DNA of 63,725 nucleotides, filler included, from Candidatus Huberarchaeum crystalense (GCA_002790315.1; 5 parts of 5 records of this genome joined end to end with filler, not necessarily neighbours in it); one strand, 5' to 3'. Shown: positions 92 through 62,901, counted from the first letter of the whole stretch. Program-made: numbers and translations. Notes: generated by a model from the letters alone, not told the origin.

Positions 92-394
92 ATGAAAGTG
101 CTACAAAAACATATGGAGCGAGTAAAAAAAGCAATTGAAGAAGGACGCGCGCAATTTGGCGCAAAGCAAAGTATTGAGGCAATGAAAAACAGAAACGCTG
201 AAATAGTTGTTGTGGCAAAGGATTCACCTGAATTTAAGAGCGCGCAATATTATCAACAGGCGGGGGGTGTTGAAATAATTACACTAGACCGAAGCGAAGA
301 CATACGCACTTTTTGCAAAAAACCATTTAAAATTAGCATGCTCGTTGTACTAAAAACAAAAAAAGCCAATAAAGCAGATAAGGACGAAAAATGA
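92..394 (+). CDS. rpl30e: 50S ribosomal protein eL30 (L7Ae/L30e family)
   Basis: KAIEEGRAQFGAKQSIEAMK...IVVVAKD...CKKPFKISMLVV matches the L30e pattern. Confidence 0.8.
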   Translation: MKVLQKHMERVKKAIEEGRAQFGAKQSIEAMKNRNAEIVVVAKDSPEFKSAQYYQQAGGVEIITLDRSEDIRTFCKKPFKISMLVVLKTKKANKADKDEK

Positions 395-561
395 GCAAAA
401 TACAAAGCCCTTTGAAAAAAAGGCGATTAGCAAAGGCAACAGCAAATGCTGGTCTATTTAGAACTGCACCTTATTGGATATTTCTTAAAACAAATCGCAA
501 AGTGGCTGGGGGGCCAACAATGCGCCACTGGCGAAGAAGAAAGGTCAAATTAAGGTTGTAA
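391..561 (+). CDS. rpl39e: 50S ribosomal protein eL39 (not in ORF track)
   Basis: Hand translation MSKIQSPLKKRRLAKAT...APYWIFLKTNRKV...RHWRRRKVKLRL; the KKRRLAKA, PxW and RHWRR motifs are diagnostic. Confidence 0.93.
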   Translation: MSKIQSPLKKRRLAKATANAGLFRTAPYWIFLKTNRKVAGGPTMRHWRRRKVKLRL

Positions 562-880
562 ATTGTGTAAATATATTAAGATGACAGGGCGTNNNNNNNN
601 CTTCCTAAAATTATTGAAGAACTAAAAAAATTTGAAAAAACAACAGTTAGTGGTTTATGTGGATCACCTATAATTTTTGTGAGCGAACTTTATAAAAATG
701 GTGATATCATAGGATATCTTCTGGGTAAGATTACTCCTAATATGGATATAACAGACAGAACAGGATTTGATGCAAAATTAGGGATTTTTGCTAAGTCTGA
801 ACATGACTTAAAATGTTGTTCTGAAATTTTAGAGAGCAAACTAGATTTTTGCCGCCAAGGTGTAAAAATTTAAAAACATT

Positions 881-2053
881 ATGAAAAAAATAATCACAAC
901 TGAGAAAATTCCAATTAAAATGTGGTTAGATGAGATTGAAGATGGCGCGCTCCAACAAGCCAAAAATCTTGCAAACCTGGCTTTTGCGTTTCATCACATT
1001 GCTTTGATGCCTGATACACATGTTGGTTTTGGCATGCCTATTGGGGGTGTTCTTGCAACAAAAGGTGTTGTTGTTGTTAATGCTGTTGGGGTTGATATTG
1101 GCTGCGGAATGTGCGCAGTTAAAACAAGTTTAAATGAGATATCGCGCGAGAAATTGATTTCAATTATGAAACAAATAAGGCAAGCAATTCCTGTTGGATT
1201 TAATAAGCACAAAGAAATGCAAGATCTAAACTTTATGCCTAGCGATTATGAAAAACTCAAAATTGTCAAAAAAGAGTTTAACAACGCCAGAAAATCTATT
1301 GGAACTTTAGGGGGAGGAAATCACTTTATTGAACTACAAAAAGGGTTAGATGGATATATTTGGATTATGCTTCATTCAGGAAGCAGAAATTTAGGACTAA
1401 AAGTTGCAGAACATTATAATAAAATTGCGCGTGAAAAATCATCTGAATTTGGTCAAAAATATGGTAATGTTCCAAAAGAATGGGACTTGGCATTTTTGCC
1501 GTTAGACACAGAAGACGGAAAAAACTATATGAATGAAATGAAATATTGTGTTGAATTTGCACTGGCAAACAGAAAATTGATGCTTGACAGAATAAAACAA
1601 ATTCTTAACAAATTGTTCGATGACTCAATTAAATACACAAATTTTATAAATATTGCCCATAATTATGCGTCTCTTGAAACACATTTTGGCAAAAAGGTGA
1701 TGATTCACAGAAAAGGCGCAACACTAGCAAGCAAAGAAACAATAGGAATTATTCCTGGAAATCAGGGAAGTAAAAGTTATATTGTCAAAGGCAAAGGAAA
1801 CAAAGAGAGTTTTGAGTCATGTTCTCATGGAGCAGGACGAATAATGGGTAGAAAAGAGGCAGTAAAAAATTTAGATTTAGAAAAAGAAATAAAAAAACTA
1901 AGGGATTTTGGTGTTATGCACAGCATAAGAAGCAAAGCAGATTTAGAAGAAGCGCCAGGTGCATATAAAAACATTGATGTTGTTATGGAAAATCAAAAAG
2001 ATTTAGTATATGTTTTGGTTGAGCTAACGCCAATAGCTATTATTAAGGGGTAA
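881..2053 (+). CDS. rtcB: RtcB RNA ligase, bacterial-type
   Basis: MPDxHxGxGxPIGG, VGVDIGCGM, GTLGGGNHFIE, HSGSR, HRKGAT, SHGAGR, EAPGAYK motifs. Confidence 0.96.
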   Translation: MKKIITTEKIPIKMWLDEIEDGALQQAKNLANLAFAFHHIALMPDTHVGFGMPIGGVLATKGVVVVNAVGVDIGCGMCAVKTSLNEISREKLISIMKQIRQAIPVGFNKHKEMQDLNFMPSDYEKLKIVKKEFNNARKSIGTLGGGNHFIELQKGLDGYIWIMLHSGSRNLGLKVAEHYNKIAREKSSEFGQKYGNVPKEWDLAFLPLDTEDGKNYMNEMKYCVEFALANRKLMLDRIKQILNKLFDDSIKYTNFINIAHNYASLETHFGKKVMIHRKGATLASKETIGIIPGNQGSKSYIVKGKGNKESFESCSHGAGRIMGRKEAVKNLDLEKEIKKLRDFGVMHSIRSKADLEEAPGAYKNIDVVMENQKDLVYVLVELTPIAIIKG

Positions 2054-2160
2054 TTTAGTAGATAATATGTTGATGAGTGATTTAGTAGATAATATAATAA
2101 ATATTTAATAACTAATTAACAATCTTTGTTTTTTGCGCGCTCTTTTTTAATTTTCATTGA

Positions 2161-2409
2161 TTATTGTTTGTTTTTTGCGCGCTTTTTCTCAACTTTGTAA
2201 GTTATATATTGTATTTTTTCTCCACATTTTTCGCACACATACACAACAATGTCTTTTCTTGGCAAAGATGTTTTGCCAATATAGCCACAAACACATTTAT
2301 ATTTAACTTGGATTTTGTCTGGCTCTTCTTTTGTTGCCCAAAGCATGCTCTTGGCTTTTTTGTCTGAAGTGCGCGCAAAAAACACCAAATCCTCTTGTTT
2401 TGGAAGCAT
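2161..2409 (-). CDS. small Zn-ribbon protein, function unknown
   Basis: CxC...CxxC motifs (YKCVCG, VCEKCG) and basic tail. Confidence 0.65.
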   Translation of the reverse strand: MLPKQEDLVFFARTSDKKAKSMLWATKEEPDKIQVKYKCVCGYIGKTSLPRKDIVVYVCEKCGEKIQYITYKVEKKRAKNKQ

Positions 2410-2452
2410 AATTCTCTTTATGATAGGAGTTTAAAAAGTTGCTAAAAATATT

Positions 2453-2683
2453 ATGGGAAATATCAGAATAAAGCAGATTAAAAAAACTGCGCGCGCACTT
2501 GTGGAAATAGCTGAGAATGAAATGTCTCCTGAATTTGAAAAAAATAAAGATGTTGCAAGCAAGTATTTTGAGTTTTCAAGCAAAAAACAGTGTAATTTAG
2601 TTGTTGGATATGCAACACATTTAAAAAACGCAAAGAAACGCAGAGAAGACAAAGAACTTGAAACCAGAGTTGTGATAAAATAG
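2453..2683 (+). CDS. rps17e: 30S ribosomal protein eS17
   Basis: MGNIRIKQIKKTARALVE...FEKNK...SKKQCNLVVGYAT. Confidence 0.93.
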   Translation: MGNIRIKQIKKTARALVEIAENEMSPEFEKNKDVASKYFEFSSKKQCNLVVGYATHLKNAKKRREDKELETRVVIK

Positions 2684-2780: not shown

Positions 2781-4652
2781 TTACCCTACAAACTTTGGCC
2801 TTTTGCTTATCAACCTCGGCAAAGGCAGCGGCTTAAATGGCCTTTCTTTTGTTTCTTTCTTAATTTTTTTTATTAAATTTGCCACACTCATATTAAATAT
2901 TTTGCCATTGTCTGCGCGCGCCCTTATTTGTAAGGTGCTGTTTTCTCCATCTTCTTGCTCTTTATCACCAACAACAATCTGATACGGCACCCACTCTTGC
3001 TCTGCTTTCATTATTTTTTTCCCAAGTGTAGCATCAGTATCATCAATATCAACACGAATATTTTGCTTTTCAAGTTTATTAGCGAGATTCTCTGCAAATT
3101 TTAGGTGGTTTTCACTGCTAATAGGCAAAATGCGAATCTGAGTTGGTGAAAGCCAAAGTGGAAGAATAGAAATATTTCCTTTTTTTTGCTCTAAATGTGC
3201 TTTTTCAAGTAAAGCGTAAATATTTCTGTCAATTGCTCCAGAAATAGATGCATGAAGCATTATTGGATACTTTTTCTCTCCATCTTTATCTATATAGTTT
3301 ATATCAAATCTTTCGGTATTTTCAACATCTATCTGAACAGTTGAAAGAGCTGATGCTTTATCTGAAGCGTCAATAAAATTAAACTCAAATTTCATCACAA
3401 AGTAAAAAGGGCGCTCGTCCCACATCTCAATAAGTACTGGTTTTTTGATAGTACTAACAAGTTCTTTTGCAAAATCCTCGTTTTGATAATAAAAGTCTTT
3501 AACAAATCTTATTCCTACTTCATAAGGAAGTTCAATATCATTCATCCAATCCATCGATGCTTTGTATTGTAAATAAAACTCTTTTTTTGCTGCATTCATA
3601 TCAGCAACAAGCGTATGCATGTCAGGCATTGTAAATGCGCGCAATCTTTTCAAACCAACAAGTTCGCCTTTTTGCTCTTTTCTAAAAGAATAGTGTGTTA
3701 ATTCATATAATTTTATAGGTAATTGTTTGTATGAAAATACCATATCCTGACTTATTAAATATTGTCCAAAACAAGCAGAAAATCTTAAAAAAAGGTCTTT
3801 ATCTCCTGATTTTACAAGATAATGACGATTAGGGAATCTATTTAAATATTTGTGTAGTTGAGGGTGGGCGAGATCATACATTATTGGTGTTTCAACTTGC
3901 ATTCCCCCTAATTTAAACATTGTGTTGTTAATTTTTTCTTCTAAAAGTCGCTTGATAAGCGAACCCTTTGGATACCATCTCAAATTACCTACATCAGATC
4001 CTGATTCATAGTCAACTAATTCTAATGCGCGCATATATATAACATGGGCAGGAGTTTGAGCATATGTTCTGACTTTTTTGACCTCATAATCTACAAATTT
4101 TTTAAGATTTTCGTGACTAGTGAAATCAAATTCTTCAGCAGGTGTTAATTTTCCATCAACATTTAAAATATACCAATATGATTTTAATTTTTCCTCTGCT
4201 TTTAAAGCAAGGTTTTGCTCTTCCTTATTTTCTTTCTCAACTGTAATTTCTCTGCTAAGCTCAGAAAGAGGATGGCCTTTACATCTTAACTCAAACGCTT
4301 TATAATAACCAAAAGGCGCTTTTTTAACAGGAGCAATTTCTTTGATCTTTTCAACCAAAGCATTCAGAATTTTGTTGCTCGGATAAGCTGGAGCTAAATT
4401 TGAGGATAAATGCGCGTAAGGGTAAATTACAATTTCTTTGGCTTTAACTTGGTTATAAATTGATAATATCTCTTTTGTGGTGTTTTCAACAATCTTTATC
4501 TCATTGAATTCATCGCCTTTTTCAACAGATATAAAAACAACAAGCGCATCTTCTGCATTAAATGGTTGTGCGTCTTGGTCATAGCCAGATTCAAGTGCTT
4601 TTGCTTGTGGTTCAACCTTTATATAATCGCTGTGGATCGTTAGTATGTGCAT
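2781..4652 (-). CDS. thrS: threonyl-tRNA synthetase, archaeal type with N-terminal editing domain
   Basis: YPYAHLSS, APFGYYKAFELRCKGHPLSELSR, LRFSACFGQ, FRKEQKGEL, RAFTMPDMH. Confidence 0.97.
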   Translation of the reverse strand: MHILTIHSDYIKVEPQAKALESGYDQDAQPFNAEDALVVFISVEKGDEFNEIKIVENTTKEILSIYNQVKAKEIVIYPYAHLSSNLAPAYPSNKILNALVEKIKEIAPVKKAPFGYYKAFELRCKGHPLSELSREITVEKENKEEQNLALKAEEKLKSYWYILNVDGKLTPAEEFDFTSHENLKKFVDYEVKKVRTYAQTPAHVIYMRALELVDYESGSDVGNLRWYPKGSLIKRLLEEKINNTMFKLGGMQVETPIMYDLAHPQLHKYLNRFPNRHYLVKSGDKDLFLRFSACFGQYLISQDMVFSYKQLPIKLYELTHYSFRKEQKGELVGLKRLRAFTMPDMHTLVADMNAAKKEFYLQYKASMDWMNDIELPYEVGIRFVKDFYYQNEDFAKELVSTIKKPVLIEMWDERPFYFVMKFEFNFIDASDKASALSTVQIDVENTERFDINYIDKDGEKKYPIMLHASISGAIDRNIYALLEKAHLEQKKGNISILPLWLSPTQIRILPISSENHLKFAENLANKLEKQNIRVDIDDTDATLGKKIMKAEQEWVPYQIVVGDKEQEDGENSTLQIRARADNGKIFNMSVANLIKKIKKETKERPFKPLPLPRLISKRPKFVG

Positions 4653-5185: not shown

Positions 5186-5815
5186 ATGTCTAAAACAGAA
5201 ATTGTACAAAAAGAACTAGCCAAAACTCCTTTTTATGAAAAAAAAGATAAACCAAAACCAATGAATATTGAAGAAGCGCGCGTAGAAATTGACAAGCAAA
5301 TATTTGAAAAGCAGTCGGGCTATATGAAAAGCCGCGCACTTTATTCGCATGGTAAAATTTGGAAAAGTTATAAAGAGTTTGCATATGTTGGATCAAAAAT
5401 AGGAAAAATTCTTGATCTGACAAAAATAGATAATAAAATTAAAAACATAGCAAAAATGCTTAAAAATTATAAAGATCAGAAAATAATACTTTTTTCAAAA
5501 AATCCAAATGATATGTCTATACAGCAATTAGCCGAAATTCTTGGATGTGATATTAAGTCATCTTACAGCGCAGGTAATCTTACAAACACAAATGTAAAGG
5601 ATTTTTTAGATATAGATTTAATTTTTATGTTTGACTTTTACTCTGACTATCTTATTAAAGATGCGATTCAGCTTGGATTACCTATTATTGCATTAGTAGA
5701 ACCAAGCAATGAGGAATCAAAAGGTATAACTTTGTTTTTACCTTGCAACAAATATTTCAGACCTGCGCGCGCATTTATCGCCAAACAAATAGCAACTTAT
5801 TATTTAGAAAGCTAA
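5186..5815 (+). CDS. rps2: 30S ribosomal protein uS2 (divergent)
   Basis: ILDLTKIDNKIK, AGNLTN, KDAIQLGLPIIALV, LPCNK motifs. Confidence 0.8.
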   Translation: MSKTEIVQKELAKTPFYEKKDKPKPMNIEEARVEIDKQIFEKQSGYMKSRALYSHGKIWKSYKEFAYVGSKIGKILDLTKIDNKIKNIAKMLKNYKDQKIILFSKNPNDMSIQQLAEILGCDIKSSYSAGNLTNTNVKDFLDIDLIFMFDFYSDYLIKDAIQLGLPIIALVEPSNEESKGITLFLPCNKYFRPARAFIAKQIATYYLES

Positions 5816-5897
5816 ATATTTCCATTAAAGAGATAACAACTTATTATTTAGAAAGCTAAATATTTCCATTAAAGAGATAGCAACTTATTATTTAGAA
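5791..5897. repeat. 44-bp tandem repeat (about 2.4 copies) overlapping the rps2 stop codon
   Basis: agcaacttattatttagaaagctaaatatttccattaaagagat at 5791 and 5835, partial copy at 5879. Confidence 0.9.
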
Positions 5898-8636: not shown

Positions 8637-8732
8637 AAAATTATACAAATTAAAATAATTCAAATCACAAAATTATACAAATTAAAATAATTCAAATCAC
8701 AAAATTATACAAATTAAAATAATTCAAATCAC
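8637..8732. repeat. 32-bp tandem repeat, 3 copies, running into an N gap
   Basis: ttatacaaattaaaataattcaaatcacaaaa at 8641, 8673 and 8705. Confidence 0.9.
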
Positions 8733-34933: not shown

Positions 34934-34935
34934 AT

Positions 34936-48862: not shown

Positions 48863-48872
48863 NNNNNNNNNN

Positions 48873-50506: not shown

Positions 50507-50542
50507 TTTATACTATATATATAATTTATTGCTAAAAAATAT

Positions 50543-50695: not shown

Positions 50696-50851
50696 AATAA
50701 ATTTTGTATTTTTGTAATTTTAAGGATTTGAGACAATTGCACTGCGATGCGGATTTAAACCTGCGAAGATTTATGTTAATATTATTATATTTATATAAAG
50801 AGCAGGCGCGAGTTGTGAAAACACGCAACAGTATTCANNNNNNNNNNNNNN

Positions 50852-50889
50852 CTTAAGTCCGTCCCCTTTGACCACTCGGGAACCCTTGC
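50852..50889 (-). tRNA. tRNA-Leu(UAA), 5' half only (rest lost in gap)
   Basis: GCAAGGGTTCCCGAGTGGTCAAAGGGGACGGA-CT TAA G. Confidence 0.8.
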
Positions 50890-51066
50890 TTTGCGGGTTT
50901 TTTTGTCAGAGACAAATCAAACTAACATATAATTTTTTTGAATTTTACGCTAAATTTATTTATGCAATTTATTAATTTTTGAATTAATTTTTTGTATTTT
51001 GACTAATTATTATTTTTTATATTAAATTTTATATTAAATACACTATATAAAACAAAAGAATATTAA

Positions 51067-51139
51067 TGAGCCTGGAGGGACTCGAACCCACAACCGCTCG
51101 GTCCGAAGCCGAGTGCGCTGTCCATTGCGCTACAGGCCC
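51067..51139 (-). tRNA. tRNA-Arg(UCG)
   Basis: GGGCCTG/CAGGCTC acceptor stem; CTCGG-CT TCG GA-CCGAG anticodon arm; GGTTCGAGTCC. Confidence 0.95.
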
Positions 51140-51189
51140 ATAGAATTTTTAAATGCAAATGTTAAACAATAGATTAAACAATAAATATA

Positions 51190-51831
51190 TTATTTAAATT
51201 GCAGAAAATATAAATAGTGGTCTTTTTCAAAAGGGTACAAATCAAGCTTTTGTAAAATCGCAAAATGTTGCGCGAGTTTTTTTTCGCACATTTTAAATAT
51301 TTCATATGGTGGCTTGCTCACATCAATTGAGCGCGCCTTTACTGCGATCATTGCAAATCCCTTTTGCTTCAAAAACAAATTGCAGTTGTTGATCAAGATT
51401 TCAATTTGCTGAGAATCAGCTACATCTTCAAATACAAAATCCATTTTTGGCAAGTCAGAATATCTTTCAGGAAAGCGCGCGTCTTCTATAATAGGAATTA
51501 TGTTTTGCCTTGCTTTTGCAAGAAAATAAAGAGGTTTTGCTGCTATGGGAGAAATCTCAACTGCAAAAATTTGACCTTGAGGTACTATATCTGAAATATG
51601 CGAAACTGTTTGACCTTGGGCTGCTCCAAGATATAAAATTTTTGACGATTCTTCAAACCCTAAATTTTGAATCCCTTTTACCATTGCTGCTGCTATTTTT
51701 GATCTGCGAGGATTCCATAAAAAAAAGGTGTTTGAGTTTATAATAAGCAAATCTTCATTATAAAAATTTTTCTCGGGTGTTGAGCTTTTTGTGTAAAAAC
51801 TATTTCCTTGCTTGTGTAGATTTTTCAGCAT
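51190..51831 (-). CDS. flpA: fibrillarin-like 2'-O-methyltransferase
   Basis: WNPRRSKIAAA, ILYLGAAQGQTVSHISDI, NIIPIIEDARFP, KARSIDV, PFEKDH. Confidence 0.96.
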   Translation of the reverse strand: MLKNLHKQGNSFYTKSSTPEKNFYNEDLLIINSNTFFLWNPRRSKIAAAMVKGIQNLGFEESSKILYLGAAQGQTVSHISDIVPQGQIFAVEISPIAAKPLYFLAKARQNIIPIIEDARFPERYSDLPKMDFVFEDVADSQQIEILINNCNLFLKQKGFAMIAVKARSIDVSKPPYEIFKMCEKKLAQHFAILQKLDLYPFEKDHYLYFLQFK

Positions 51832-51832
51832 A

Positions 51833-52966
51833 TTATGATTTAATATTTATTTGTTTTTGATTGGTGAGTATCTGGTTTGCAATACCTTCTCCTATTGCGC
51901 GCGCAAAATTATCTATGCTAAAAATATCTTTTGCTTTATCAATATTATATTCTTTAATGTTGGGATTAGTTATATTTAATATTTTGCTTAAATAATCAAC
52001 TGCTTGCTTTTGTCCGCCGATTTTGTCAGCCAAACCAAAAGATACCGCCTCATTTCCCAAAAAAATACTTCCTGCTTTTATCAGTTCTAAGTTTTCAGAA
52101 GATATATTTCTATTTGCTGTAAATTCACTAAATAGGTCATTATATAAACTGTCAACAATTGTTTGAAAACGTTTCTGTTCTTCAGAAGTTGGGGACCTAT
52201 AGTTAGAACCCATATCTTTCATTTCACCTGACTTAAACACTGAAACATTAATGCCAATCTTTTCATACAATTCTTGGTAATATTTATAAGATATAACTAC
52301 TCCGAGAGACCCGACAATTGCGTGAGGATGCACAAATATTTTGTCAGTTGCGCCCGCTATAAAATATGCACCAGATGCTCCTTTTTGTGAAATAACGCTG
52401 ACTATTAATTTGTTTTGCTTGACTTCTTTTACAGCATATATTATTTCTTCTGTTTCAGCCACACCCCCACCAGGCGAGTTTATATCTAAAATTATGGCTT
52501 TTACTTTTTTGTTATCTTTTAAATCTAATAGTGATTTTGAAATTTTTTGAGCATCTGCGCACCCATCGCAATTACCAATTTTTCCTGAAATTGGAACTAC
52601 CACAAATGAATTTTCTTTAATTTCCTGACCAAAAAAAGCCAAAACCCTGTTTCCATCACTATTACTATATAAACCCCCCGCCAACAACAAAGCAATGAAA
52701 AAAATCAACAATAAGACAAATGTAAATCCAATTCCTGCGGCAAAAAATAGCAAACCAAAAGAACTATTGTTGTTGGGTTTAGTGCGCGCCATTTGTATGT
52801 CTTTGTTTTCAAAAGTGTTTTTGTTTGCTTCAAAGGATACTTGCTTGTCTTTGTTTTCAAATTCAAACATATCTTTGTTCTTTTCAAAAGATGTAACCAA
52901 ATCTGATTTATTAAGTTGTGATTTTTTTGCTTGGCCTTTGTTTAGTTTTTTTTTATTTAGAACCAT
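51833..52966 (-). CDS. sppA: signal peptide peptidase SppA (S49)
   Basis: AIILDINSPGG, GASGAY, VGSLGV, KSGEMKDMG, GLADKIG. Confidence 0.94.
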   Translation of the reverse strand: MVLNKKKLNKGQAKKSQLNKSDLVTSFEKNKDMFEFENKDKQVSFEANKNTFENKDIQMARTKPNNNSSFGLLFFAAGIGFTFVLLLIFFIALLLAGGLYSNSDGNRVLAFFGQEIKENSFVVVPISGKIGNCDGCADAQKISKSLLDLKDNKKVKAIILDINSPGGGVAETEEIIYAVKEVKQNKLIVSVISQKGASGAYFIAGATDKIFVHPHAIVGSLGVVISYKYYQELYEKIGINVSVFKSGEMKDMGSNYRSPTSEEQKRFQTIVDSLYNDLFSEFTANRNISSENLELIKAGSIFLGNEAVSFGLADKIGGQKQAVDYLSKILNITNPNIKEYNIDKAKDIFSIDNFARAIGEGIANQILTNQKQINIKS

Positions 52967-52997
52967 AACTTTTTGTATAAAAGAAGTTAAAAAAAAT

Positions 52998-53954
52998 ATG
53001 GATATATTTTATGTTGTTGGCCACAAAAATCCAGATACTGACAGTGTCTGTTCAGCGATTGCATTGTCTGATTATTTATCAAAGTGTTCTACAAAAACAA
53101 ATTCTGATGAAAAATATGAGCCTGCTATTCAAGGAGAAATTAATGAAGAAACAAAATGTGCATTAAACAAATTTGGCGTTGAAACCCCTCTAATTTTAAC
53201 AGATGCAACAAACAAAAAAGTAATTCTTGTAGATCATAATAATAAAATGCAAACACTTGATAATATTGAAAAAGCAGAAAAAATCGTGCGCGTCCTTGAC
53301 CATCACCCAATTAATTTTTCTTACCAGGAGCAAATAGAATTTCTTACAATGCCAGTTGGATCTACTGCAACAATAATTGCTCAAATGTACTTTAAAGAAA
53401 ATATAAATATTGACAAAAAAATAGCGGGGCTGTTGCTTTCTGCTATATTGTCTGATACAGTTGTTTTTAAATCTCCAACAACAACAGATATTGATAAAAT
53501 AATGGCGAAAAAATTAGAAAAAATCGCAGACATATCTAATTTTGAGGTGTTTGGGCTGGAATTAAAAAAAGCAAAAGCAAGTTTAAAGAACAAAACACCA
53601 TGCCAAATTATAGACGCTGATTTTAAGGAATTTAATATGAATGGATGCAAAGTTGGCATAGGGCAGTTAGAAGTTGTTGATTTTGAAGATTTTTATGCAA
53701 TAAAAGAGCAAGTTAGTAGCCAAATGAAAAAAATGAAGCAAGATAAAAATTATACTCTTGTTTTGCTTGTTTTTACAGATATTTTGCGAGAAGGCAGTGA
53801 ATTTTTGACAGCAGGAGATGTTGATGCTGTTAAAAAAGCGTTTAATATTTCCACAATAGATGGAATATTTTTAAAAGGCATGATGTCTAGAAAAAAGCAG
53901 GTTGCTCCTTTGTTAGAAAACTACTACAATAAAAACCAAAATAATAAGAATTAA
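52998..53954 (+). CDS. ppaC: Mn-dependent (family II) inorganic pyrophosphatase (start moved to MDIFY)
   Basis: GHKNPDTDS, ILVDHN, DHH, AILSDT, SPTTT, SRKKQVAP. Confidence 0.96.
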   Translation: MDIFYVVGHKNPDTDSVCSAIALSDYLSKCSTKTNSDEKYEPAIQGEINEETKCALNKFGVETPLILTDATNKKVILVDHNNKMQTLDNIEKAEKIVRVLDHHPINFSYQEQIEFLTMPVGSTATIIAQMYFKENINIDKKIAGLLLSAILSDTVVFKSPTTTDIDKIMAKKLEKIADISNFEVFGLELKKAKASLKNKTPCQIIDADFKEFNMNGCKVGIGQLEVVDFEDFYAIKEQVSSQMKKMKQDKNYTLVLLVFTDILREGSEFLTAGDVDAVKKAFNISTIDGIFLKGMMSRKKQVAPLLENYYNKNQNNKN

Positions 53955-54059
53955 ATCTTTAAATATTTTGAAAAATTGATTAAAACAACAATTAAATCNN
54001 NNNNNNNNNNNNNAAAAAGAGCGAGAAACATACTCAAAACAACAAACCATAAAACAATT

Positions 54060-54191
54060 CTATTTTGCTTCAATTACTTTTTTTGTACTTGGATCGCGCA
54101 CTTTTTTGAAAATTATTCCCTGACAAGTAGGACACTCAATTGTTGTGTGTTCAACGAGTGTTTTACACTTTATGCAGTAATACAATACCAT
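54060..54191 (-). CDS. rpoP: RNA polymerase subunit Rpo12 (RpoP) (not in ORF track)
   Basis: Hand translation MVLYYCIKCKTLVEHTTIECPTCQGIIFKKVRDPSTKKVIEAK. Confidence 0.85.
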   Translation of the reverse strand: MVLYYCIKCKTLVEHTTIECPTCQGIIFKKVRDPSTKKVIEAK

Positions 54192-54426
54192 AATATATTG
54201 TGTAAGATTTTACACAAATATACAAAAACTAGATTATGTTTAAAAAACATATGCAACTTAAATTAACTATTACTTCCAAACTAAATATTTTGTATAGTGA
54301 AATAAATAAATACTTTATTCAATCTTTTATTTGGACATATTTGAAAAACACAAGCTTTTCTAAATTGCATGATTTGCTAAAATTTAAATTTTTTTCATTT
54401 TCAAATACAATGTTAGGAGTGTGAAA

Positions 54427-55854
54427 ATGGAAAAAATTAATTTTGGTCTTGAAATTCATCAGCAACTTAACACACACAAACTCTTTTGCAATTGTGATTT
54501 TTATTCTGGACAAGAAACTGATTTTTCAATTCTGCGGCAAATGAGAGCTTCAGCAGGTGAAGGCGGAGCAGTAGATATTGCTGCACTTGAGGAAACAAAA
54601 ACCAAAAAATTTATAAAGTATATAGCAAAAAAAGACAAAATTTGTTTGGTTGAATTAGATGATGAACCTCCTCACTTGCCAAACCGAGAAGCAATGATAT
54701 ATTCTGCTAAGATTGCAAAGGCTTTTGGAATGAAAGTCAGAAAAAATGTTATATTTATGAGAAAAATTATTATAGATGGCTCTAATGTTAGCGGTTTTCA
54801 GCGGACAGCTTTACTAGCAACTAATGGAAAAATAGAAGTCTCTTTTGGAAATGTAGGGATATCTAACTTGTTTATTGAAGAAGACGCAGCTCAAATTATT
54901 GGCAAAGATAATGGCAAGCGGGTCTTTAGTTTGTCTCGTTTAGGCGTTCCTTTAATTGAAATTACAACCGAAATGTTTAGTGCAACTCCTTCTCAAATTA
55001 AGGGGGTTGCTGAAAAAATAGGATCTGTTTTGCGGATGAGTGGATTTGTTAGGCGTGGTTTAGGTACTATTCGGCAAGATATAAATATTTCGGTTGGTGA
55101 TGGAAAACGTGTAGAGATTAAGGGAGCGCAAGATCTATCTCAAATAGAAAAAATAATAGGTGTTGAAATAGCGCGCCAAAAAGTGTTGAGAAATAATCTA
55201 AAATCAGAAGTTAGGCAAGTTATTCCTGACAGCACAACAAGAGCCTTGCGACCAATTTCAACCAGAAGCCGCATGTATCCTGAAACAGACATTCCTATCT
55301 TCACTTTTTCAAATGAGGAATTAGCAGATATTCAACAATATTTTCTTGAAGACCCAGAGACAAAACATAACCGCTTCAAATTATTAGGATTAAGCGATGA
55401 TCTCGCGAGTCAGATTATTAAATCAAAAGATTTGTTTGATTTTGAGGACGCAATTGCTAGATTTAAAAATATTGAGCCAAAAAAAATCGCAGAGGTCTTT
55501 GTTAATGCAAAACGAGATGCTCAACGCAAGATTGAAAAAGATGTTATTTCTAATAACATAAGTTGTGAAAAACGACAACAAATTGACAATAAATATGTTC
55601 TTGATGTTTTGGAATTGTTAGATAAAAAAAAAATTGTTTTTCCAGCAATAGTTGAAATATTGGTTAAAGGAAACCACCAAAAGTTTGAGAAAATAACAGG
55701 TGAGAACTTAGAAAAAGAAGTCAAAAAAATTATGGAAAAAAGCAAGGGAAAAGATGAAACTATTATGATTAAGATTTTGATGGGTGAGTTTAGGCTAAGG
55801 GCTGATTTTAAGGATGTTCTAAACATTTATAATAAATTTCACCAAAAAATATAG
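54427..55854 (+). CDS. gatE: Glu-tRNA(Gln) amidotransferase subunit E, compact form
   Basis: GLEIHQQL..KLFC, DDEPPH, MRKIIIDGSNVSGFQRT, EEDAA, RLGVPLIEI, RGLGTIRQDIN, RMYPETD. Confidence 0.93.
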   Translation: MEKINFGLEIHQQLNTHKLFCNCDFYSGQETDFSILRQMRASAGEGGAVDIAALEETKTKKFIKYIAKKDKICLVELDDEPPHLPNREAMIYSAKIAKAFGMKVRKNVIFMRKIIIDGSNVSGFQRTALLATNGKIEVSFGNVGISNLFIEEDAAQIIGKDNGKRVFSLSRLGVPLIEITTEMFSATPSQIKGVAEKIGSVLRMSGFVRRGLGTIRQDINISVGDGKRVEIKGAQDLSQIEKIIGVEIARQKVLRNNLKSEVRQVIPDSTTRALRPISTRSRMYPETDIPIFTFSNEELADIQQYFLEDPETKHNRFKLLGLSDDLASQIIKSKDLFDFEDAIARFKNIEPKKIAEVFVNAKRDAQRKIEKDVISNNISCEKRQQIDNKYVLDVLELLDKKKIVFPAIVEILVKGNHQKFEKITGENLEKEVKKIMEKSKGKDETIMIKILMGEFRLRADFKDVLNIYNKFHQKI

Positions 55855-56036
55855 AAAAATCGCGCACTTTTTAAATATTAGCTGCGACAAAATAGAAAGT
55901 TATTTTTAGGACAAAAATATAATGTTTGTTATCAAAAATTTTTACAAAATAAATACTGCAAAATCTTTTTTCAAAAACCATATATCTCTAAATTCAATAA
56001 GCATAGAAAAACAAAAAATCCTTTTTCAAAAACCAT

Positions 56037-58628
56037 ATGTCTCTAAATTCAATAAGCATCGAAAAACAAAAAATTTTAGATTGCCAAGAAAATACCCTTG
56101 TTATCGCAAATCCAGGAACAGGCAAAACATTTTTGCTTAGTCATAAATATATTTCTCTTTTGAAACAAGGACTAAAACCAGAAGACATACTTTGCTTGAC
56201 TTTTACAGAAAAGGCGCGCGAAGAAATGGAAAACCGAATAAAAAAATTCATTGACAAAGACAACATACCTGTTAGTATTTCTAATTTAAAGATTCATACT
56301 TTTCACTCTTTTTCTGCAGAAAATATTATAAAAAACAAATTTCTTGTAACTAATCTTGGACGTTATTTTGCATACAAATATTTGAAAGAAAAAGAAGTAT
56401 TTAATTATTCTGATGGCTATTTGATGAGCACAATAGCACCAACAATTGACAAAATGATTCAGTATCTTAAAAACCACAAAATCACTCCTGAAAAAATTGA
56501 TATTAAAAGAGCAGGAGATTTTTTGCAAGAAAAAGGAAGATATAAAAAAGAAGACCTTGAAAAGATTTTGTATTTTTTTGTTGAATTATATAAAGAATAT
56601 GAAAAAATAAAACAAGAAAAAGGCTATTTAGATTATGTAGATCTTTTGCTTAATTTTAAAATAGATTCTCCTTTATACAAATATGTTCTTGTTGATGAGC
56701 TTCAAGACGCAAATTTACTTGAAGCAGAAATTGCATTACACGCAGGGCAGAAATTTTTTGCTGTGGGTGATAAAAAGCAAGCTATCTTTGGTTTTCAAGG
56801 AGGTTCGGTAACAAATTTCAACAAGTTTAAACAATCAAAAGTGTTTGTTCTTTCTGAAAATTTTAGAAGCACAAACGAAATTCTTAACTATGCAAAAGAA
56901 TTTTATAAATTAAATGGAAATATGGTTCCCCAAGAGCTTGAAAATTTAAGAAATGTTGAGGGTAAAACAGGTCAAAAACCAAAGCTGTGTGTGTCGACGA
57001 ATCAAGTTAAAACAACTCTTTTGCTTGTGAAGCAAATATTAAATCAAAAGAAAGTTCCAACAATTTTAGCTAGAACAAACCAACAATTACTGCAAATAGC
57101 AAGCGAGCTCAAAAAGCAAAAATTAAATTATTTAATAACATTTTCAAGAGAGGCGAATTTTGCGAAAAAAGAAATACTTACCTTTCTTAGAAGTATATTT
57201 TCTGAGAATACGATTTGTCTTAAAAAGGCTTTGTTTACTCCTTTTATTTCTATTTCGACAAAAGATGCATTTGAGATATCAGAAAACAAAAAAATAATTA
57301 GTGATGAAATTTACAAAAAAGTGCCTGAACTTAAAAAAATAAAAGAGTCAATGCATTCTTTTAGTGATTTAATAAATTTGTTTGACAATTTAATTATTCC
57401 AAAAGCAAGGGAGCAAAGCAAGGAATATTTAAATATGGCTGAGAATTTTAAAGAAATGCTTAGCGAGGCAAAAAGAGCAGTAGATGCTTTCAATCCAAAT
57501 GAAATAATACTTTATCTGAGCACTGCTGATATTCCTCTTTCTGAAATAAAAGGAGAGCAGAACACAATTATTTTATCAACTGTTCACAAAGCAAAAGGCC
57601 GCGAATTTGATTATGTAATTTATTTGCCTGCGAAATCGCAAGAAAAACTTGCTTTTAGGTCTGCGATTATTGATGCAATACTCGCATCTCAAAACAATGA
57701 CAAATCAAATGTTGATGAAGAGCTAAACCTTGATTTTGTTGCAATTACAAGAGCAAAAAACGAATTATACATACTTAATCAAAATTATGGCCGCTATATA
57801 AATTCATTTATAGATAAGTCCTTTATCCCAGAGCAAGATACCTTTATTGAAAATAAAAACAATTTTGAGAAAAATTGGTTTGCTGAAAAGATAATAGAAC
57901 ATTTTTCAAACAAAAAATCATTTTCTTTTTCAGAAATTTATTTGAGCCCTGAAGATTATTTATATTTAAATATTTTGAAAATTGGTGAAATATCTTCTAG
58001 TCAAGAAATAGGCATTAATGTTCATTCAATTGCATCAAAAATACTAAAAGGTCTAACTCAAGAAGAGATATTCAAACAAGATTCTCAACTCGAAAAATAT
58101 GAAAAATATATATTTAATATTTATAAAATTATTTCTGAAATCAAACAAAAATATGCTTTAGTTTACAATTCCGAACTCTCAATAGATGTGCCATTATCAG
58201 AATTTTTTGAAACAGATGCTAAAATTAATTTTAATGGTAGAATTGATGCAGTTTTTAAAGATAATAATGAGAATTATTTAATTGTTGATTGGAAAACAGA
58301 TAGAAATGAAGTTCAAAGTTCTAAACATCGTCAGCAATTAGAATTATATATGCGCGCGCTTTCCAAGAAAAATAATATTCCTATTGAAAAAATAAAAATC
58401 GCCATTGCTTATGTTGGATTAAAAAAGCAAATATCTGATGGGGTTTTGGATTATAAACTTGATGAGCAACAACCATCAAAATATATATTTGAAAATATTG
58501 TGGTGAATAAAATAAATTTGTTTTTATATTGGAAAGAAAACCCCCAAAATTTTATCGCAAGTTTGTTTGAAAACGAGAGCAATGATCCGATTTTAATCAG
58601 AATTCTGCAAAATAGAGATAAACTATAG
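56037..58628 (+). CDS. UvrD/PcrA-like SF1 helicase with C-terminal PD-(D/E)XK nuclease
   Basis: ANPGTGKT, VDELQD, GDKKQAIFGFQG, NFRS, TVHKAKGREF, VAITRAK; GRIDAVF...IVDWKT...QLELY. Confidence 0.93.
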   Translation: MSLNSISIEKQKILDCQENTLVIANPGTGKTFLLSHKYISLLKQGLKPEDILCLTFTEKAREEMENRIKKFIDKDNIPVSISNLKIHTFHSFSAENIIKNKFLVTNLGRYFAYKYLKEKEVFNYSDGYLMSTIAPTIDKMIQYLKNHKITPEKIDIKRAGDFLQEKGRYKKEDLEKILYFFVELYKEYEKIKQEKGYLDYVDLLLNFKIDSPLYKYVLVDELQDANLLEAEIALHAGQKFFAVGDKKQAIFGFQGGSVTNFNKFKQSKVFVLSENFRSTNEILNYAKEFYKLNGNMVPQELENLRNVEGKTGQKPKLCVSTNQVKTTLLLVKQILNQKKVPTILARTNQQLLQIASELKKQKLNYLITFSREANFAKKEILTFLRSIFSENTICLKKALFTPFISISTKDAFEISENKKIISDEIYKKVPELKKIKESMHSFSDLINLFDNLIIPKAREQSKEYLNMAENFKEMLSEAKRAVDAFNPNEIILYLSTADIPLSEIKGEQNTIILSTVHKAKGREFDYVIYLPAKSQEKLAFRSAIIDAILASQNNDKSNVDEELNLDFVAITRAKNELYILNQNYGRYINSFIDKSFIPEQDTFIENKNNFEKNWFAEKIIEHFSNKKSFSFSEIYLSPEDYLYLNILKIGEISSSQEIGINVHSIASKILKGLTQEEIFKQDSQLEKYEKYIFNIYKIISEIKQKYALVYNSELSIDVPLSEFFETDAKINFNGRIDAVFKDNNENYLIVDWKTDRNEVQSSKHRQQLELYMRALSKKNNIPIEKIKIAIAYVGLKKQISDGVLDYKLDEQQPSKYIFENIVVNKINLFLYWKENPQNFIASLFENESNDPILIRILQNRDKL

Positions 58629-58804
58629 AGTTGTTTTTAATCAGAATTCTGCAAAATAAATACGGGATATAAGTTGTTTTAATTAGAATTCTGCAANNNN
58701 NNNNNNNNNAAATACAGAATATAAGTTGTTTTAATTAGAATTCTGCGAGACAAAAACAAGATGTAAAGTTAATTTATTTGTATAAAAACGCTGCTAAAAA
58801 ACAT

Positions 58805-61193
58805 ATGGTGCAAAAAATAATTGACTCTGAAATATCTAACGAGCTAAAGAAATCATATTTAACTTATGCAATGAGTGTAATTGTTTCGCGCGCTTTGCCT
58901 GATGTGCGCGACGGACTTAAACCAGTTCAACGCAGAATTCTTTATAGTATGTATGAACTTGGCTTGACAAAAGGTGCAAAAACAAAAAAGTGTGCGCGCA
59001 TAGTTGGAGATGTTATGGGTAAATACCACCCCCACGGAGATTCTGCAATTTATGGGGCATTAGTTCGATTGGCACAGAATTTTTCAATGCGATACACTTT
59101 AATTGAAGGACAGGGAAATTTCGGATCAATTGACGGAGATCCGCCAGCAGCAATGAGATATACAGAAGCAAAATTAGAAGGAATTACTACTAATTTTTTA
59201 GATGACATAAACAAAGAAACTGTTGATTTTATACCAAGTTATGATAATACAAACCAAGAACCAGTACTTCTTCCTACAAAAATCCCAAATGTTTTGCTTA
59301 ATGGCAGCTCAGGCATTGCTGTTGGAATGGCTACTAACATACTCCCTTATAATCTAACCGAAATAATGACTTGTTTAATATATATAATTGACGAACCGTC
59401 AGCTAATTTAGATGATCTTGAAAAAATTATAAAAGGTCCTGATTTTCCGACAGGAGGAACTATTTTAGGAAACAAAGGAATTAGAGACACGCATATGACA
59501 GGAAAAGGAGCGATAACTGTGCGCGCAAACGCAGAGTTTACTGACAATGAAATAATTATCACAGAAATTCCCTATTTGGTGAACAAATCAGATGTTATTT
59601 TAAAAATTGCGTCTTTGGTGCGAGAAAAAAAAATTGATGGTATTTCTTCAATTCGCGACGAATCTGACAAAAAGGGTATGCGAATTTATATAAAAACAAG
59701 CAAAGGTGCTGACCCTGAATTTGTATTTAAACATCTTTGCAAATTAACAGAACTTCAGACAACTTTATATGCAAATACATTGGCGCTTATTAACAATCAG
59801 CCAAAATTGTTTTCCTTGCGCGAAATGCTTGAAGAGTTTATTAAATTTAGGCAATTGATCGTGCTTAACAGGACAAAATTCCTGCTAAAAAAAGCCCAAG
59901 AGCGAAAACACATAGTTGATGGGCTTATTATTGCTGTTAACAATATTGATATTGTAATTGATTTGGTAAAAAAAGCAAAGCAAATTGAAGAAGCAAAGCA
60001 AAACCTAAAAACTAAATTTTCTTTATCAAACATACAAGTTGACAATATACTCGCAATGCAGTTAAGGAGATTGACTGCTCTTGAACAAAATGAATTAAAA
60101 AATGAACAAACAGAACTTAATCAAAAAATTAAAGATTGTCAAGAAGCAATTGTTTCTCCTGAAAAAATATTATATATTATAAAAAAAGAGTTCAGAGAAA
60201 TACTCGAAAAATTTGGTGATAAACGAAAAACCCAGATAACAGTCGAAGAATCGCAAGATGTTGATGACGAGGACTTAATTAAAGACAAAGGTTGCTTAAT
60301 TACATTATCTTACAATCAATTTATTAAAAGGAGAGATGTTGCCACTCAACAAAGACGAGGGGGAGTTGGTTCTAGAAGTTTTTCATCCACAGCAGATGAT
60401 TTTGTTGAAACTATAATCAAAGCAAATACAAAGGATTTACTTTTATTTTTTACAGATCACGGAAAGATCTTTTGGCAAAAAGCATACAAAATTCAAGAAA
60501 TGGGGCGAAATGCGCGCGGATCTTCTGTTCGCAATCTATTTAACTTGTCAGAAGGCGAAAAAATAACAAAAATACTTATCTCTCCAAAAATAGTCAATGA
60601 TGATGATTTTGTTTTGTTTGCGACAGAGAATGGCAAGGTAAAACTAACTGCACTGAGCGAATATAGTAATCCAAGATCTTCTGGTCTAATTGCAATTAAT
60701 TTGCGCAAAAAAGACAAAGTCGTGGATGTGTTTGTTGTAAACCCAAAACAGAGTGTTTTTTTGGCGACAAAATTAGGAAAATTAAACAAATTTTTAGTTG
60801 ATGAAGTTAGAGCAGTTGGCAGAAGCGCAATAGGTGTCATAGGAATTGACTTAAAGAAAAATGATAAAGTTGTTTCAGCAGGAATCGCCAATCCTAATGA
60901 AACAATACTTACAATTACAGAGTTTGGTTATGGAAAACGCACTCCTGTTGAGTCATATTCTTTAACACACCGCGCAGGTGTTGGAGTTATAAATATAAAT
61001 ATAACTAACAAAACAGGTCAAGTTATTAAAGCGCACTGTGTTAGATCTGAAAATAATTTAATTATTGTGACAACCCGAGGAATGATTATAAACACTAGTT
61101 TAGATCAAATTTCAATAATTGGAAGAAACACACAAGGTGTTAGGTTAATTAAACTAAAAGAAAATGATAAAGTAGTTGATTGTACTGTTTTTG
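58805..61193 (+). CDS. gyrA: DNA gyrase subunit A (3' end in gap)
   Basis: [28 protein letters not shown], GyrA-box QRRGGVG, beta-pinwheel repeats. Confidence 0.96.
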
Positions 61194-61425
61194 NNNNNNN
61201 NNNNNNNNNNNNNNNNNNNNNNNNNNNNNNNNNNNNNNNNNNNNNNNNNNCATTATAAATAGCATTAATATTAATTAAATTGTGTTAATATTGATTTGTA
61301 GTATTGATTAAATTTTGATATTGATTTATAATATTGATTAAATTTTGATATTGATTAAATTTTAATATTAGTTAGTATTAGTTTAAATTTTTGGAGATTT
61401 ATTCAACGAACTCATTAAAAAGATT

Positions 61426-62052
61426 ATGAAAGACAAAGAAACCCGCAAAGATATTGAAGATATTAAAGAAGCGAGTAAGTCGCGCGATTTTTTTGATATT
61501 TTGAGAAAAAGGCAGCGAAGAAATGTCATAACAGAAGCATATAGAGAAACCGAGCAAGCAGAAAACGCATTTTTTGAAGAGCGCGCACAAAAGCACGAAA
61601 CCGAGAGCATACTTGACAAACCAATTGTTAAAAAATCGATTATTACAGGTATTTTTTTGCTTGTTTTAATTGCATTGATTGTGTTGGCTTTTGTATTTTT
61701 TATGCAACAGCAAATAGATATTGATATTAAATTTGGTTGTGCATCACCTGATGATGGAAGCAACAGAATATTTTGTAGTACAATAATAATTCCAAAAAAT
61801 AACTTAACAATTATAGATGTTTGGTTGCATGCTGATGTTATTAAAAGCGCACAATGTAATTTTGAAAATAGTATCTTTAATGATATTTCAACAAATTGGG
61901 CGCGCATTATAGCTACAAATATAACTGCAAACCAAGAATATAATTGTATTTTTGAAATAGCATCAAAAACAAATACTGCTTCTAAAGCTGTTAGAGCTAC
62001 ACTTAATATTTGTTACCCTTTAAATGAAAATAATACACTGCGTTGCATTGAA
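61426..62052 (+). CDS. single-TM hypothetical protein (3' end in gap)
   Basis: Charged N-terminus, one TM helix, Cys-containing beta-rich domain. Confidence 0.6.
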
Positions 62053-62078
62053 NNNNNNNNNNAGAAATAAAATAAATT

Positions 62079-62366
62079 ATGTCAAAACAACTTGCTACAC
62101 AATATACTAATGAATTTTTAAATTTAGCCAAGCAAATTGCTAATGAGCAACCTGAAAGAGCGGCAAGGTATGTTGAAATTTGCAGGAAAATCGCAACAGC
62201 GTTTAATATTCGTCTTAGCAAAAGAAAGCGCGAATTTTGCAAGCAGTGCAATGCATATTTAACACCTAAGTGCGCCACATATCGACTATTAAAAATCAGA
62301 GGAAGAACTTGTTTATTTGTTAAGTGCGCGAAATGTAGAACAATTAAGAAAATTATTCTAAAATAA
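62079..62366 (+). CDS. rnp4: RNase P protein Rpp21
   Basis: AARYVEICRKIA...KREFCKQC...VKCAKC. Confidence 0.9.
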   Translation: MSKQLATQYTNEFLNLAKQIANEQPERAARYVEICRKIATAFNIRLSKRKREFCKQCNAYLTPKCATYRLLKIRGRTCLFVKCAKCRTIKKIILK

Positions 62367-62467
62367 ATGTTAATTTAAGTATACCAAAATATAGTTTTTT
62401 TGTTATTATTTTTCTGCAAAACAAAAACCTGAGCCAAACACTTTACAAAATTTAATTATATGGTATA

Positions 62468-62697
62468 AAGAGAGTAATTGATTTGAAGAGAGTAAATGAT
62501 TTGAAACAAGTAATTGATTTGAAGAGAGTATTTGGTTTAAAGAGAGTAATTGATTTGAAACAAGTAATTGATTTGAAACAAGTAATTGATTTGAAACAAG
62601 TAATTGATTTGGAGAGAGTAAATGATTTGAAACAAGTAATTTGAAGAGAGTATTTGGTTTAAAGAGAGTAATTGATTTGAAACAAGTAATTGATTTG
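62468..62697. repeat. intergenic array of 13 units, mostly 18 bp
   Basis: Variants aagagagtaattgatttg, aaacaagtaattgatttg and aagagagtatttggttta with no spacers; one unit is 14 bp. Confidence 0.93.
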
Positions 62698-62901
62698 GGG
62701 GGGGGTAATTTATGCGCGCGCTTTCACCACATTTTATATTAGATCATTAACTAACTTTAGGCCCATATTTTTTTAATAAAAGCGCGCGCAAACTCTCTTA
62801 TAATTGCCTATTTTTCACAAACAACGTAATTAATATTTATTAAATATATAAATATATTATGGAAAAATTAAAAAGATTACTTATAATTATTAGGGGGAGT
62901 T

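Follow-up and report, generated by a model that had tools for sequence, protein, structure and literature searches.

A GCGCGC highly iterated palindrome in the native chromosome of the archaeon Candidatus Huberarchaeum crystalense

The hexamer GCGCGC occurs 78 times, overlapping matches included, in a 63,725-nucleotide stretch of DNA from Candidatus Huberarchaeum crystalense (GCA_002790315.1), which we refer to as the window and in which five scaffolds (1-28882, 28983-35097, 35198-40071, 40172-48115 and 48216-63725) are joined with spacers of N. In scaffold order the counts are 42, 9, 0, 6 and 21, the zero belonging to a scaffold (35198-40071) that encodes a rolling-circle Rep protein; the other four, 58.2 kb in total, are referred to here as the host scaffolds, and the motif continues throughout them, as the initial annotation of this DNA had noticed. 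This is almost certainly a real signal at the level of DNA, comparable to the highly iterated palindromes (HIPs) known from cyanobacteria, of which HIP1 (GCGATCGC) is the model. HIPs are still unexplained, and 30 years on, where HIP1 comes from and what it does are still debated in terms of biased repair, chromosome structure or DNA uptake; what is new here is a HIP-like GCGCGC in an uncultured, AT-rich archaeon from groundwater. It is a strong and apparently lineage-restricted palindrome, and the mechanism that we put forward for it is a proposal.

Dinucleotide-preserving shuffles of the sequence (n=100) contain a mean of 2.65 copies (sd 1.73, maximum 7), and none of the 100 attained 78. For the host scaffolds, Markov models of orders 0 to 4 predict 0.9, 2.4, 24.6, 40.4 and 74.1 copies, so that the excess over order 1 is about 32-fold, above the 15-fold or so required of a HIP. 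The G+C content of these scaffolds is 31-32%, compared with 35.3% in the Rep-encoding scaffold, and an earlier estimate that about one copy would be expected at roughly 30% G+C agrees well with the independent-base value of 0.9. The 11 sites that had been listed in the first ~4.1 kb are each exact matches, to which overlapping matches at 2491 and 2916 can be added. The 78 matches form 67 separate tracts of at least three GC units with unrelated flanks, so that the host scaffolds carry about 1.15 tracts per kb, or roughly one per 0.7-0.9 kb, with a mean spacing within scaffolds of 711 nt. Compared with random placement, the spacing is not significantly more regular (coefficient of variation, CV, 0.82 versus 0.98±0.11, P=0.055). 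Most tracts (61 of 67) lie inside genes, where they show no significant preference for position (20, 11, 12 and 18 per gene quartile).

Codon usage does not account for these numbers. Shuffling synonymous codons within each gene, which keeps the protein, its dipeptides and the per-gene codon usage, leaves 7.76±2.54 copies (n=300, maximum 18) where 68 coding copies are observed, and shuffling codon order leaves 3.0. In the strictest shuffle, which also fixes the first two letters of each codon and the base that follows it, the mean is 39.7±3.2 and the maximum 48, still below 68. The coding copies occupy all reading frames (26, 12 and 30 in frames 0, 1 and 2). Alanine followed by arginine is spelled GCG-CGC in 26 of its 45 occurrences, even though GCG serves only 136 of 928 alanine codons and CGC 141 of 523 arginine codons. 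When all positions at which the encoded protein would permit the word are considered, GCGCGC is found at 68 of 140 (49%; 26/45, 12/44 and 30/51 in frames 0, 1 and 2), as against 0-1% for the control palindromes GCCGGC (1/90), GGCGCC (0/84), CCGCGG (1/106) and GGGCCC (0/61). A force acting on DNA therefore overrides codon choice, and sometimes the choice of amino acid, and about half of the positions open to the word have been filled. Because the dipeptides Ala-Arg (45) and Arg-Ala (59) themselves exceed the 29 expected of each, by 1.5-2-fold, GCGCGC also shapes proteins.

Three tracts within the threonyl-tRNA synthetase (ThrRS) gene illustrate both effects, in an alignment of which 3 of 14 rows are largely gapped or misaligned. 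The minus-strand GCGCGCGC at 2914-2921 encodes Ala-Arg-Ala where the 11 aligned orthologues have Val, Ile, Ser or Asp, then Arg and a gap, and goes with lineage-specific residues. At 3637-3642 (minus strand) the word lies in Leu-Arg-Ala (TTG CGC GCA), of which the Arg-Ala is kept in 10 of 12 aligned orthologues, and here the site is realised through codon choice. The third, at 4027-4032 (minus strand), lies in Met-Arg-Ala (ATG CGC GCA); its Arg-Ala is common to only 4 of 11 aligned orthologues, all four from the nearest, Altiarchaeota-like group.

The motif also occurs between genes. The non-coding DNA of the host scaffolds (7,740 nt, 25.4% G+C) contains six tracts with eight matches, where 0.03 would be expected from independent bases and 0.19 from dinucleotides (counts of G 1011, C 954, GC 234 and CG 118). 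The five sites previously described as intergenic are all outside the open reading frame (ORF) calls: 2135-2140; 2723-2728, a GCGCGC(G) between the genes for S17e and ThrRS; 31891-31896, upstream of the alanyl-tRNA synthetase (AlaRS) gene; and two copies of GCGCGCGC, at 62714-62721 and 62782-62789. The site at 2135 is not independent of that at 2177-2182, since they occupy the first and second copies of a 42-nt tandem duplication, and the nearby site at 2489 falls inside the small S17e gene. The GCGCGCGC at 62714 comes just after an intergenic tandem array (62468-62697) of 13 copies of an 18-nt unit, with 79% matches, that ends in a run of eight G residues.

It could be supposed that the excess follows from composition, whether of amino acids, codons or short k-mers, or from a repeat element dispersed through the DNA. 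The order-4 expectation of 74.1 is indeed close to the count, and 56 of the 68 coding matches lie on Ala-Arg or Arg-Ala dipeptides. The order-4 agreement is circular and thus uninformative, however, because 78 of 115.5 GCGCG pentamers sit within the hexamer itself, and when the tracts are masked GCGC falls to 100 copies against the 139.6 expected from trinucleotides. The dipeptides are themselves enriched, and the protein-preserving shuffles, the copies in frame 1 and those in non-coding DNA, and the level of saturation all point the same way, in line with the early view that Ala-Arg codon usage alone is no explanation. The flanks carry almost no information beyond ±1, with a mild preference for T before the tract and A after it, and only one pair of sites belongs to a common duplication. 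This explanation is refuted, and we assign it next to no probability. It had been anticipated that the enrichment might vanish once codons, dipeptides and shorter k-mers were controlled for; it survives the first two, and the order-4 k-mer comparison cannot bear on the matter.

Several related candidates have been set aside on the same data. A codon, dipeptide or k-mer artefact is ruled out by the shuffles and the saturation, and a dispersed repeat or miniature inverted-repeat transposable element by the uninformative flanks. Protection of duplex stability by a GC clamp is ruled out since other G/C-only hexamers are 0-1% saturated, and junction scars are ruled out by the location of 61 of 67 tracts in genes, with ThrRS tracts partly on conserved Arg-Ala.

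The nature of the repeated unit was approached by counting maximal alternating G/C runs and comparing them with order-1 simulations. Isolated trimers (GCG/CGC, 209/206 versus 188/187 expected) and isolated GCGC (53 versus 57.7) are not enriched, and isolated CGCG is barely so (27 versus 19.2). Pentamers are more abundant than expected (21/17 versus 5.7/6.4), as are hexamers (GCGCGC 37 versus 1.83, CGCGCG 9 versus 0.60), heptamers (10/9 versus 0.19/0.28) and one of the two octamers, GCGCGCGC (11 versus 0.06); the other, CGCGCGCG, is absent, and no maximal run in the window reaches nine letters. The four-letter words GCGC and CGCG are therefore not the target; the excess starts at five letters and peaks at six to eight. 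In maximum-entropy models on a trinucleotide background, for which the log-likelihood gains (dLL) are approximate because the fits ended at a 600-iteration limit, the gain is 52.9 for GCGCG/CGCGC, 42.3 for GCGCGC, 30.8 for CGCG, 19.1 for CGCGCG and about zero for GCGC (boost 1.05). A boost to GCGCGC accounts for CGCGCG (75 predicted, 78 observed, residual boost 1.1), while the reverse model, in which CGCGCG is boosted, predicts 88 GCGCGC where 156 are observed. Tracts in the GC phase outnumber those in the CG phase by 48 to 9, but once dinucleotide composition is allowed for the preference is not significant (P=0.075), GpC being far commoner than CpG (relative abundance, rho, 1.66 versus 0.77).

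In one-off variants clear of true sites, the deviations fall mainly on the outer letters, with 56 at positions 1/6 (13.4 expected), 38 at 2/5 (18.1 expected) and 24 at 3/4 (18.1 expected). Among 302 occurrences of G/C-only hexamers, GCGCGC contributes 78, CGCGCG 39 and GGCGCG/CGCGCC 32, and the other six palindromes contribute 0-3 each (GGCGCC, GGGCCC and CCCGGG 0, CCGCGG 1, GCCGGC 2, CGGCCG 3). Taken together, the modal word is the palindrome GCGCGC, which is probably primary and is surrounded by a graded halo of its five-letter halves, although a five-letter or short alternating tract may be the target instead of the hexamer.

Three simpler descriptions of the unit were tried and dropped. 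Generic G/C-only runs fail since the signal is specific to alternation; GCGC or CGCG alone fails for lack of enrichment among isolated copies; and a microsatellite-type alternating CG tract would be open-ended in length, which is not seen.

Several peculiarities of neighboring words in the host scaffolds were observed alongside. TGCGCA is 3.6-fold under its trinucleotide expectation (20 versus 73, both strands) and TGCGCGCA is 3-fold over it (24 versus 7.4, both strands); between T and A, the four-letter core is almost always extended to six. The abundance of GpC in the host core (1.66) is extreme, and remains high after the tracts are masked (2,168 versus 1,378 expected).

The palindrome is also a property of native DNA specifically. 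The native core of scaffold 1 (1-24167) carries 42 GCGCGC, 123 GCGC and 84 CGCG, with GpC rho of 1.73 and CpG rho of 0.75, whereas the remainder of the scaffold (24168-28882) has no GCGCGC and only two each of GCGC and CGCG in 4,667 nt, with CpG rho of 0.41 and GpC rho of 1.21; GCGC thus averages about 5 per kb in the core and occurs twice in the 4.7-kb island. A motif-free stretch of this length is marginally improbable under uniform placement in scaffold 1 (P=0.045). No Pfam family was recognized among its ORFs, with one weak MopE-type metal-binding motif as the sole similarity, and the island is probably acquired or hypervariable DNA. Three further segments lack the motif. The start of scaffold 2 (28983-30343) has a single 342-aa ORF of no family, with two GCGC; the start of scaffold 4 (40172-43348) has a tRNA gene, a thioredoxin-like gene and small ORFs, with seven GCGC and two CGCG. 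The third, at the start of scaffold 5 (48216-50473), has two GCGC where 9.0 are expected from trinucleotides, and includes a minus-strand gene (48611-49798) for a D12-class N6-adenine DNA methyltransferase (PF02086) with an N-terminal helix-turn-helix domain (HTH_3), interrupted by runs of N. Its CpG and GpC abundances (1.21 and 1.30) are nearer those of the Rep-encoding scaffold than those of the chromosome. The motif had been called sparse at 24.4-28.9 kb and in the restriction-modification island; it is in fact entirely missing from both 24168-28882 and 48216-50473.

The Rep-encoding scaffold (35198-40071; CpG rho 1.30) likewise has no GCGCGC, and that part of an earlier description holds; the same description called it viral, and it could be either a virus or a plasmid. 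Its plus-strand rolling-circle Rep gene (37793-38917; PF23343 and PF01446) is the only recognizable one, with a weak match to a replication-initiator PHROG and no matches to structural proteins, and when viral_contigs was searched for proteins related to Rep, 13 pattern matches came up, of which none was confirmed. A tandem array on this scaffold (36700-36872; 4.8 copies of 36 nt) possibly represents iterons. GCGC and CGCG together number 8 where the scaffold's own trinucleotides predict 22.1 (P=5.5e-4), and other four-letter palindromes are avoided relative to order-1 expectations: CTAG (0 versus 6.3), ACGT (1 versus 11.3), GATC (3 versus 17.2), AGCT (2 versus 10.1) and GGCC (2 versus 8.7). 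The host core for its part avoids ACGT (10 versus 63.7), CTAG (25 versus 79.1), CATG (51 versus 158), TCGA (35 versus 85) and AGCT (82 versus 197), but not GATC. GCGC and CGCG thus behave like restriction targets on the Rep-encoding scaffold and in the opposite manner on the chromosome. The absence of GCGCGC marks DNA that is foreign in composition, as the CpG values of 24168-28882, 48216-50473 and the Rep-encoding scaffold illustrate, and there is good reason to use the word, as proposed, to tell native DNA apart. What is shown is a sequence-specific force that has worked on the DNA of the resident chromosome over evolutionary time and has left recently acquired DNA untouched.

In the native chromosome GCGCGC is a genuine highly iterated palindrome, along with its five-letter halves and its overlapping versions of seven and eight letters, and the question becomes what maintains it. 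The mechanism that we propose, to which we would give somewhat less than an even chance, is linked to a methyltransferase. A resident cytosine DNA methyltransferase would recognize CGCG or GCGCGC, and its recognition of the site would work together with one of two processes: biased repair, by which mutations that generate a methylated G-mC step become fixed, as in the ratchet that Elhai proposed for HIP1 and the alternate HIPs, or selection favoring methylated sites roughly a kilobase apart. In the HIP account available in Elhai (2015, PMC4390886), an inner site gains a G before it and a C after it, which places G-mC on each strand. GCGCGC can be read as G + CGCG + C, an exact analogue of HIP1 as G + CGATCG + C, and the near-normal abundance of isolated CGCG noted above is what Elhai's scheme predicts.

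A number of observations weigh against this proposal. No cytosine methyltransferase, glycosylase of the Vsr or MIG type, or mismatch-repair gene was seen in the window, nor was a methyltransferase seen in an extra 7 kb of sequence, and the sole methyltransferase of the window is the D12 adenine enzyme, in an island that looks foreign. Since the spacing is not significantly even, it does not bear out the idea of a single site in each repair tract. Vsr-type repair in E. coli depletes deamination neighbors; here they are not depleted, with GTGCGC/GCGCAC at 22 versus 25.0 expected and GCGTGC/GCACGC at 8 versus 7.7 (words clear of true sites, trinucleotide expectations). The pentamer model fits slightly better than the hexamer model (dLL 52.9 versus 42.3), and all of the boost models over-predict tracts of at least seven letters, including 22-26 copies of CGCGCGCG on both strands where there are none, so something also limits tract length. 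For HIP1 itself, Xu et al. (2018, PMC5861425) hold, in the text available, that it is kept by selection and not by biased repair.

An alternative that we consider doubtful is that GCGCGC is a selected site for a DNA-binding reader unrelated to methylation-coupled repair, such as a signal for uptake of self DNA or for recombination, or a nucleoid-structuring site, with purifying selection maintaining roughly one copy in each kb. Its density, its saturation and its independence of frame fit DNA uptake sequences and HIP1 equally well, absence from foreign DNA fits a mark of self, and the spacing does lean toward evenness. HIP1 is described as conserved by selection and periodic in the available part of PMC5861425 (compare that of PMC13756078). 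The one T2SSF-like gene in the window is, however, not specific to such a function, known uptake sequences are 9-12 nt and non-palindromic, and the graded excess of partial words (about 3-fold for pentamers and 4-fold for outer one-off variants) suggests precursors or decay products and not a sharply defined site.

It is also conceivable, if unlikely, that there is no dedicated reader at all, and that a bias of mutation or repair, or a structural preference for Z-DNA-prone sequence, builds short alternating G/C in either phase, with GCGCGC merely the commonest spelling given the excess of GpC over CpG. Both isolated phases are indeed enriched alike over dinucleotides, without a significant preference between them; CpG survives mainly beside G or C (GCGC 9.0-fold, ACGT 0.08-fold, TCGA 0.30-fold); and no other single addition to a dinucleotide background gains as much as the GCG/CGC trinucleotide (dLL 252). 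The tracts nonetheless lack the length distribution of slippage, there being neither a run of nine or more nor any CGCGCGCG, where additive models across both backgrounds predict 22-51 of the latter on both strands; isolated alternations of three and four letters are not enriched; and once GCGCGC is accounted for, no separate boost is required for CGCGCG. For a B-to-Z transition, moreover, tracts of 6-8 bp are short. Alternating G/C of at least 6 nt is under-represented in prokaryotes generally, Euryarchaeota included, according to the available text of Huang and Mrazek (2014, PMC4060949). Returning to the methyltransferase-linked proposal, its extension would be that HIPs are a general outcome, in any domain of life, of a cytosine methyltransferase combined with repair that reads G-mC, with this archaeon as one independent instance and the word becoming a heritable mark of self, present in native DNA and avoided by mobile DNA; this broader claim we regard as rather improbable.

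How widely GCGCGC is enriched depends on where the organism belongs, and its phylum is uncertain, because ThrRS points to Altiarchaeota, the closest genomes reached (at most 63% identity), while RtcB is only 34-40% identical to the Altiarchaeota proteins (471-488 aa; five genomes, E≤0.001). The RtcB of the window (881-2053, plus strand) is a short, bacterial-type form of 390 aa, 64-67% identical to many proteins of similar length, of which a few carry the names Patescibacteria, Parcubacteria or Actinobacteria in their source records, with one relative at 79%. Judging from these comparisons, either RtcB arrived by lateral transfer or Altiarchaeota are not close relatives of the organism. Across 61 Altiarchaeota genomes the raw counts of GCGCGC range from 1 to 1,240; in all 22 that were sampled the ratio of observed to expected is 0.2-4.5, with composition estimated from 2.5-21 kb per genome (38-63% G+C), and none resembles the window, their kinship to it being doubtful given the RtcB identity. 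One Altiarchaeales genome, IMC4, with 487 matches, was entertained as a weaker instance of the signal and rejected, as its sampled G+C is 50.6% and the excess only 1.3-fold. Loci of Methanofastidiosia (31% G+C) and Methanobacteriaceae (34%) have no GCGCGC in 16-20 kb. Because the placement of the organism is doubtful, these data show only that the excess is not general to low-G+C archaea or to the nearest reachable neighbors.

The host scaffolds carry archaeal housekeeping genes, among them those for a ThrRS with an archaeal editing domain, AlaRS, ribosomal proteins and fibrillarin. The core of scaffold 1 encodes RtcB, S17e, ThrRS, S2, an aRF1/Pelota-like protein, TrkH/TrkA, a DnaG-like protein, Nop56/58, a GTPase, OapB, NMD3, an RPA-like protein, deoxyhypusine synthase, malic enzyme, S9, S24e and S8e. 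That of scaffold 2 (30344-35097, nine GCGCGC) has AlaRS and its neighbors; that of scaffold 4 (43349-48115, six GCGCGC) has a T2SSF-like membrane protein of 889 aa, L2 and a NUDIX protein; and that of scaffold 5 (50474-63725, 21 GCGCGC) has fibrillarin, an S49 peptidase, a DHH phosphoesterase, GatE/B-like proteins, a helicase-nuclease and GyrA. The gene for OapB, an origin-associated protein (PF09846, E 2.6e-16), is on the plus strand at 13658-14035 next to those for NMD3 and the RPA-like OB-fold protein, and a replication origin may lie near it. The helicase-nuclease (56037-58628, plus strand, 863 aa), a UvrD-type helicase fused to a PD-(D/E)XK nuclease with an AddA/PcrA-like architecture, is encoded directly upstream of GyrA and is one of the few DNA-repair proteins visible in the window. 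Further perfect or near-perfect tandem arrays are present at 5789-5897 (2.5 copies of 44 nt), 8637-8732 (3 copies of 32 nt), 45296-45453 (3.8 copies of 42 nt) and 55960-56074 (2.1 copies of 55 nt). Identical DNA is found on two metagenome contigs, and 24 groundwater or aquifer metagenome runs contain the stretch at 0.99 of sampled words, the source possibly being among them.

An independent case would show the HIP phenomenon to be general, and this one lies in another domain, has a different and simpler word, and exceeds background 30-fold in a genome that is very AT-rich. It is also a cleaner system for testing, in which CGCG, as the candidate inner site, and GCGCGC, as the full one, are both directly readable with commercial enzymes and by methylome sequencing; the relevant enzymes are BstUI (CGCG), HhaI (GCGC) and BssHII (GCGCGC). 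For practical purposes the word is a sharp marker of native versus imported DNA and can help, in this lineage, to bin sequences and to recognize islands. It also calls for caution, in that the Ala-Arg and Arg-Ala content and the use of CGC and GCG codons are shaped here by DNA and not by translation.

Among known systems, restriction-site avoidance, reportedly treated by Gelfand and Koonin in 1997 and by Rusinov et al. in 2015, resembles what is seen on the Rep-encoding scaffold, where GCGC and CGCG are avoided along with CTAG, ACGT, GATC, AGCT and GGCC, and on the host in its avoidance of ACGT, CTAG, CATG, TCGA and AGCT; GCGCGC on the host is opposite in sign, being enriched. DNA uptake sequences, such as the DUS of Neisseria and the USS of Pasteurellaceae, are similar in occurring about once per kb, independently of frame, and in marking self DNA. 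They differ in being tied to a known competence receptor, whereas only a T2SSF-like membrane protein is seen in the window.

The closest likeness is to the cyanobacterial HIPs, as was first proposed by analogy. Our search of the literature found no published excess of GCGCGC and no archaeal HIP (the per-genome supplements of PMC4060949 were outside the search), and neither GCGCGC nor archaea appears in the available text of Elhai (2015, PMC4390886). Here the word is purely alternating, the domain is Archaea, the genome is much more AT-rich (31% G+C), and the five-letter half-words are enriched too, which distinguishes GCGCGC from HIP1. HIP1 also has a periodicity of 10-90 kb; the host DNA compared here spans 58 kb. 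The same available text of Elhai (2015) describes alternate HIPs of single cyanobacterial lineages (GGCGCC, GCCGGC-type and GCsGC), a HIP density that settles near 1 per kb, and one-off variants of HIP1 that deviate mostly in either their first letter or their last, and that of Xu, Lawrence and Durand (2018, PMC5861425) describes the HIP1 sites as conserved as well as periodic. Like HIP1, GCGCGC is a short G+C-rich palindrome that occurs in every frame as well as in spacers, roughly once per kb, is over-represented tens-fold and overrides codon choice; the outer letters are likewise where its one-off variants mostly differ, the word can be read as an inner palindrome between G and C, its presence, as with HIP1 and the alternate HIPs, may be specific to a lineage, and it is sparse in imported DNA.

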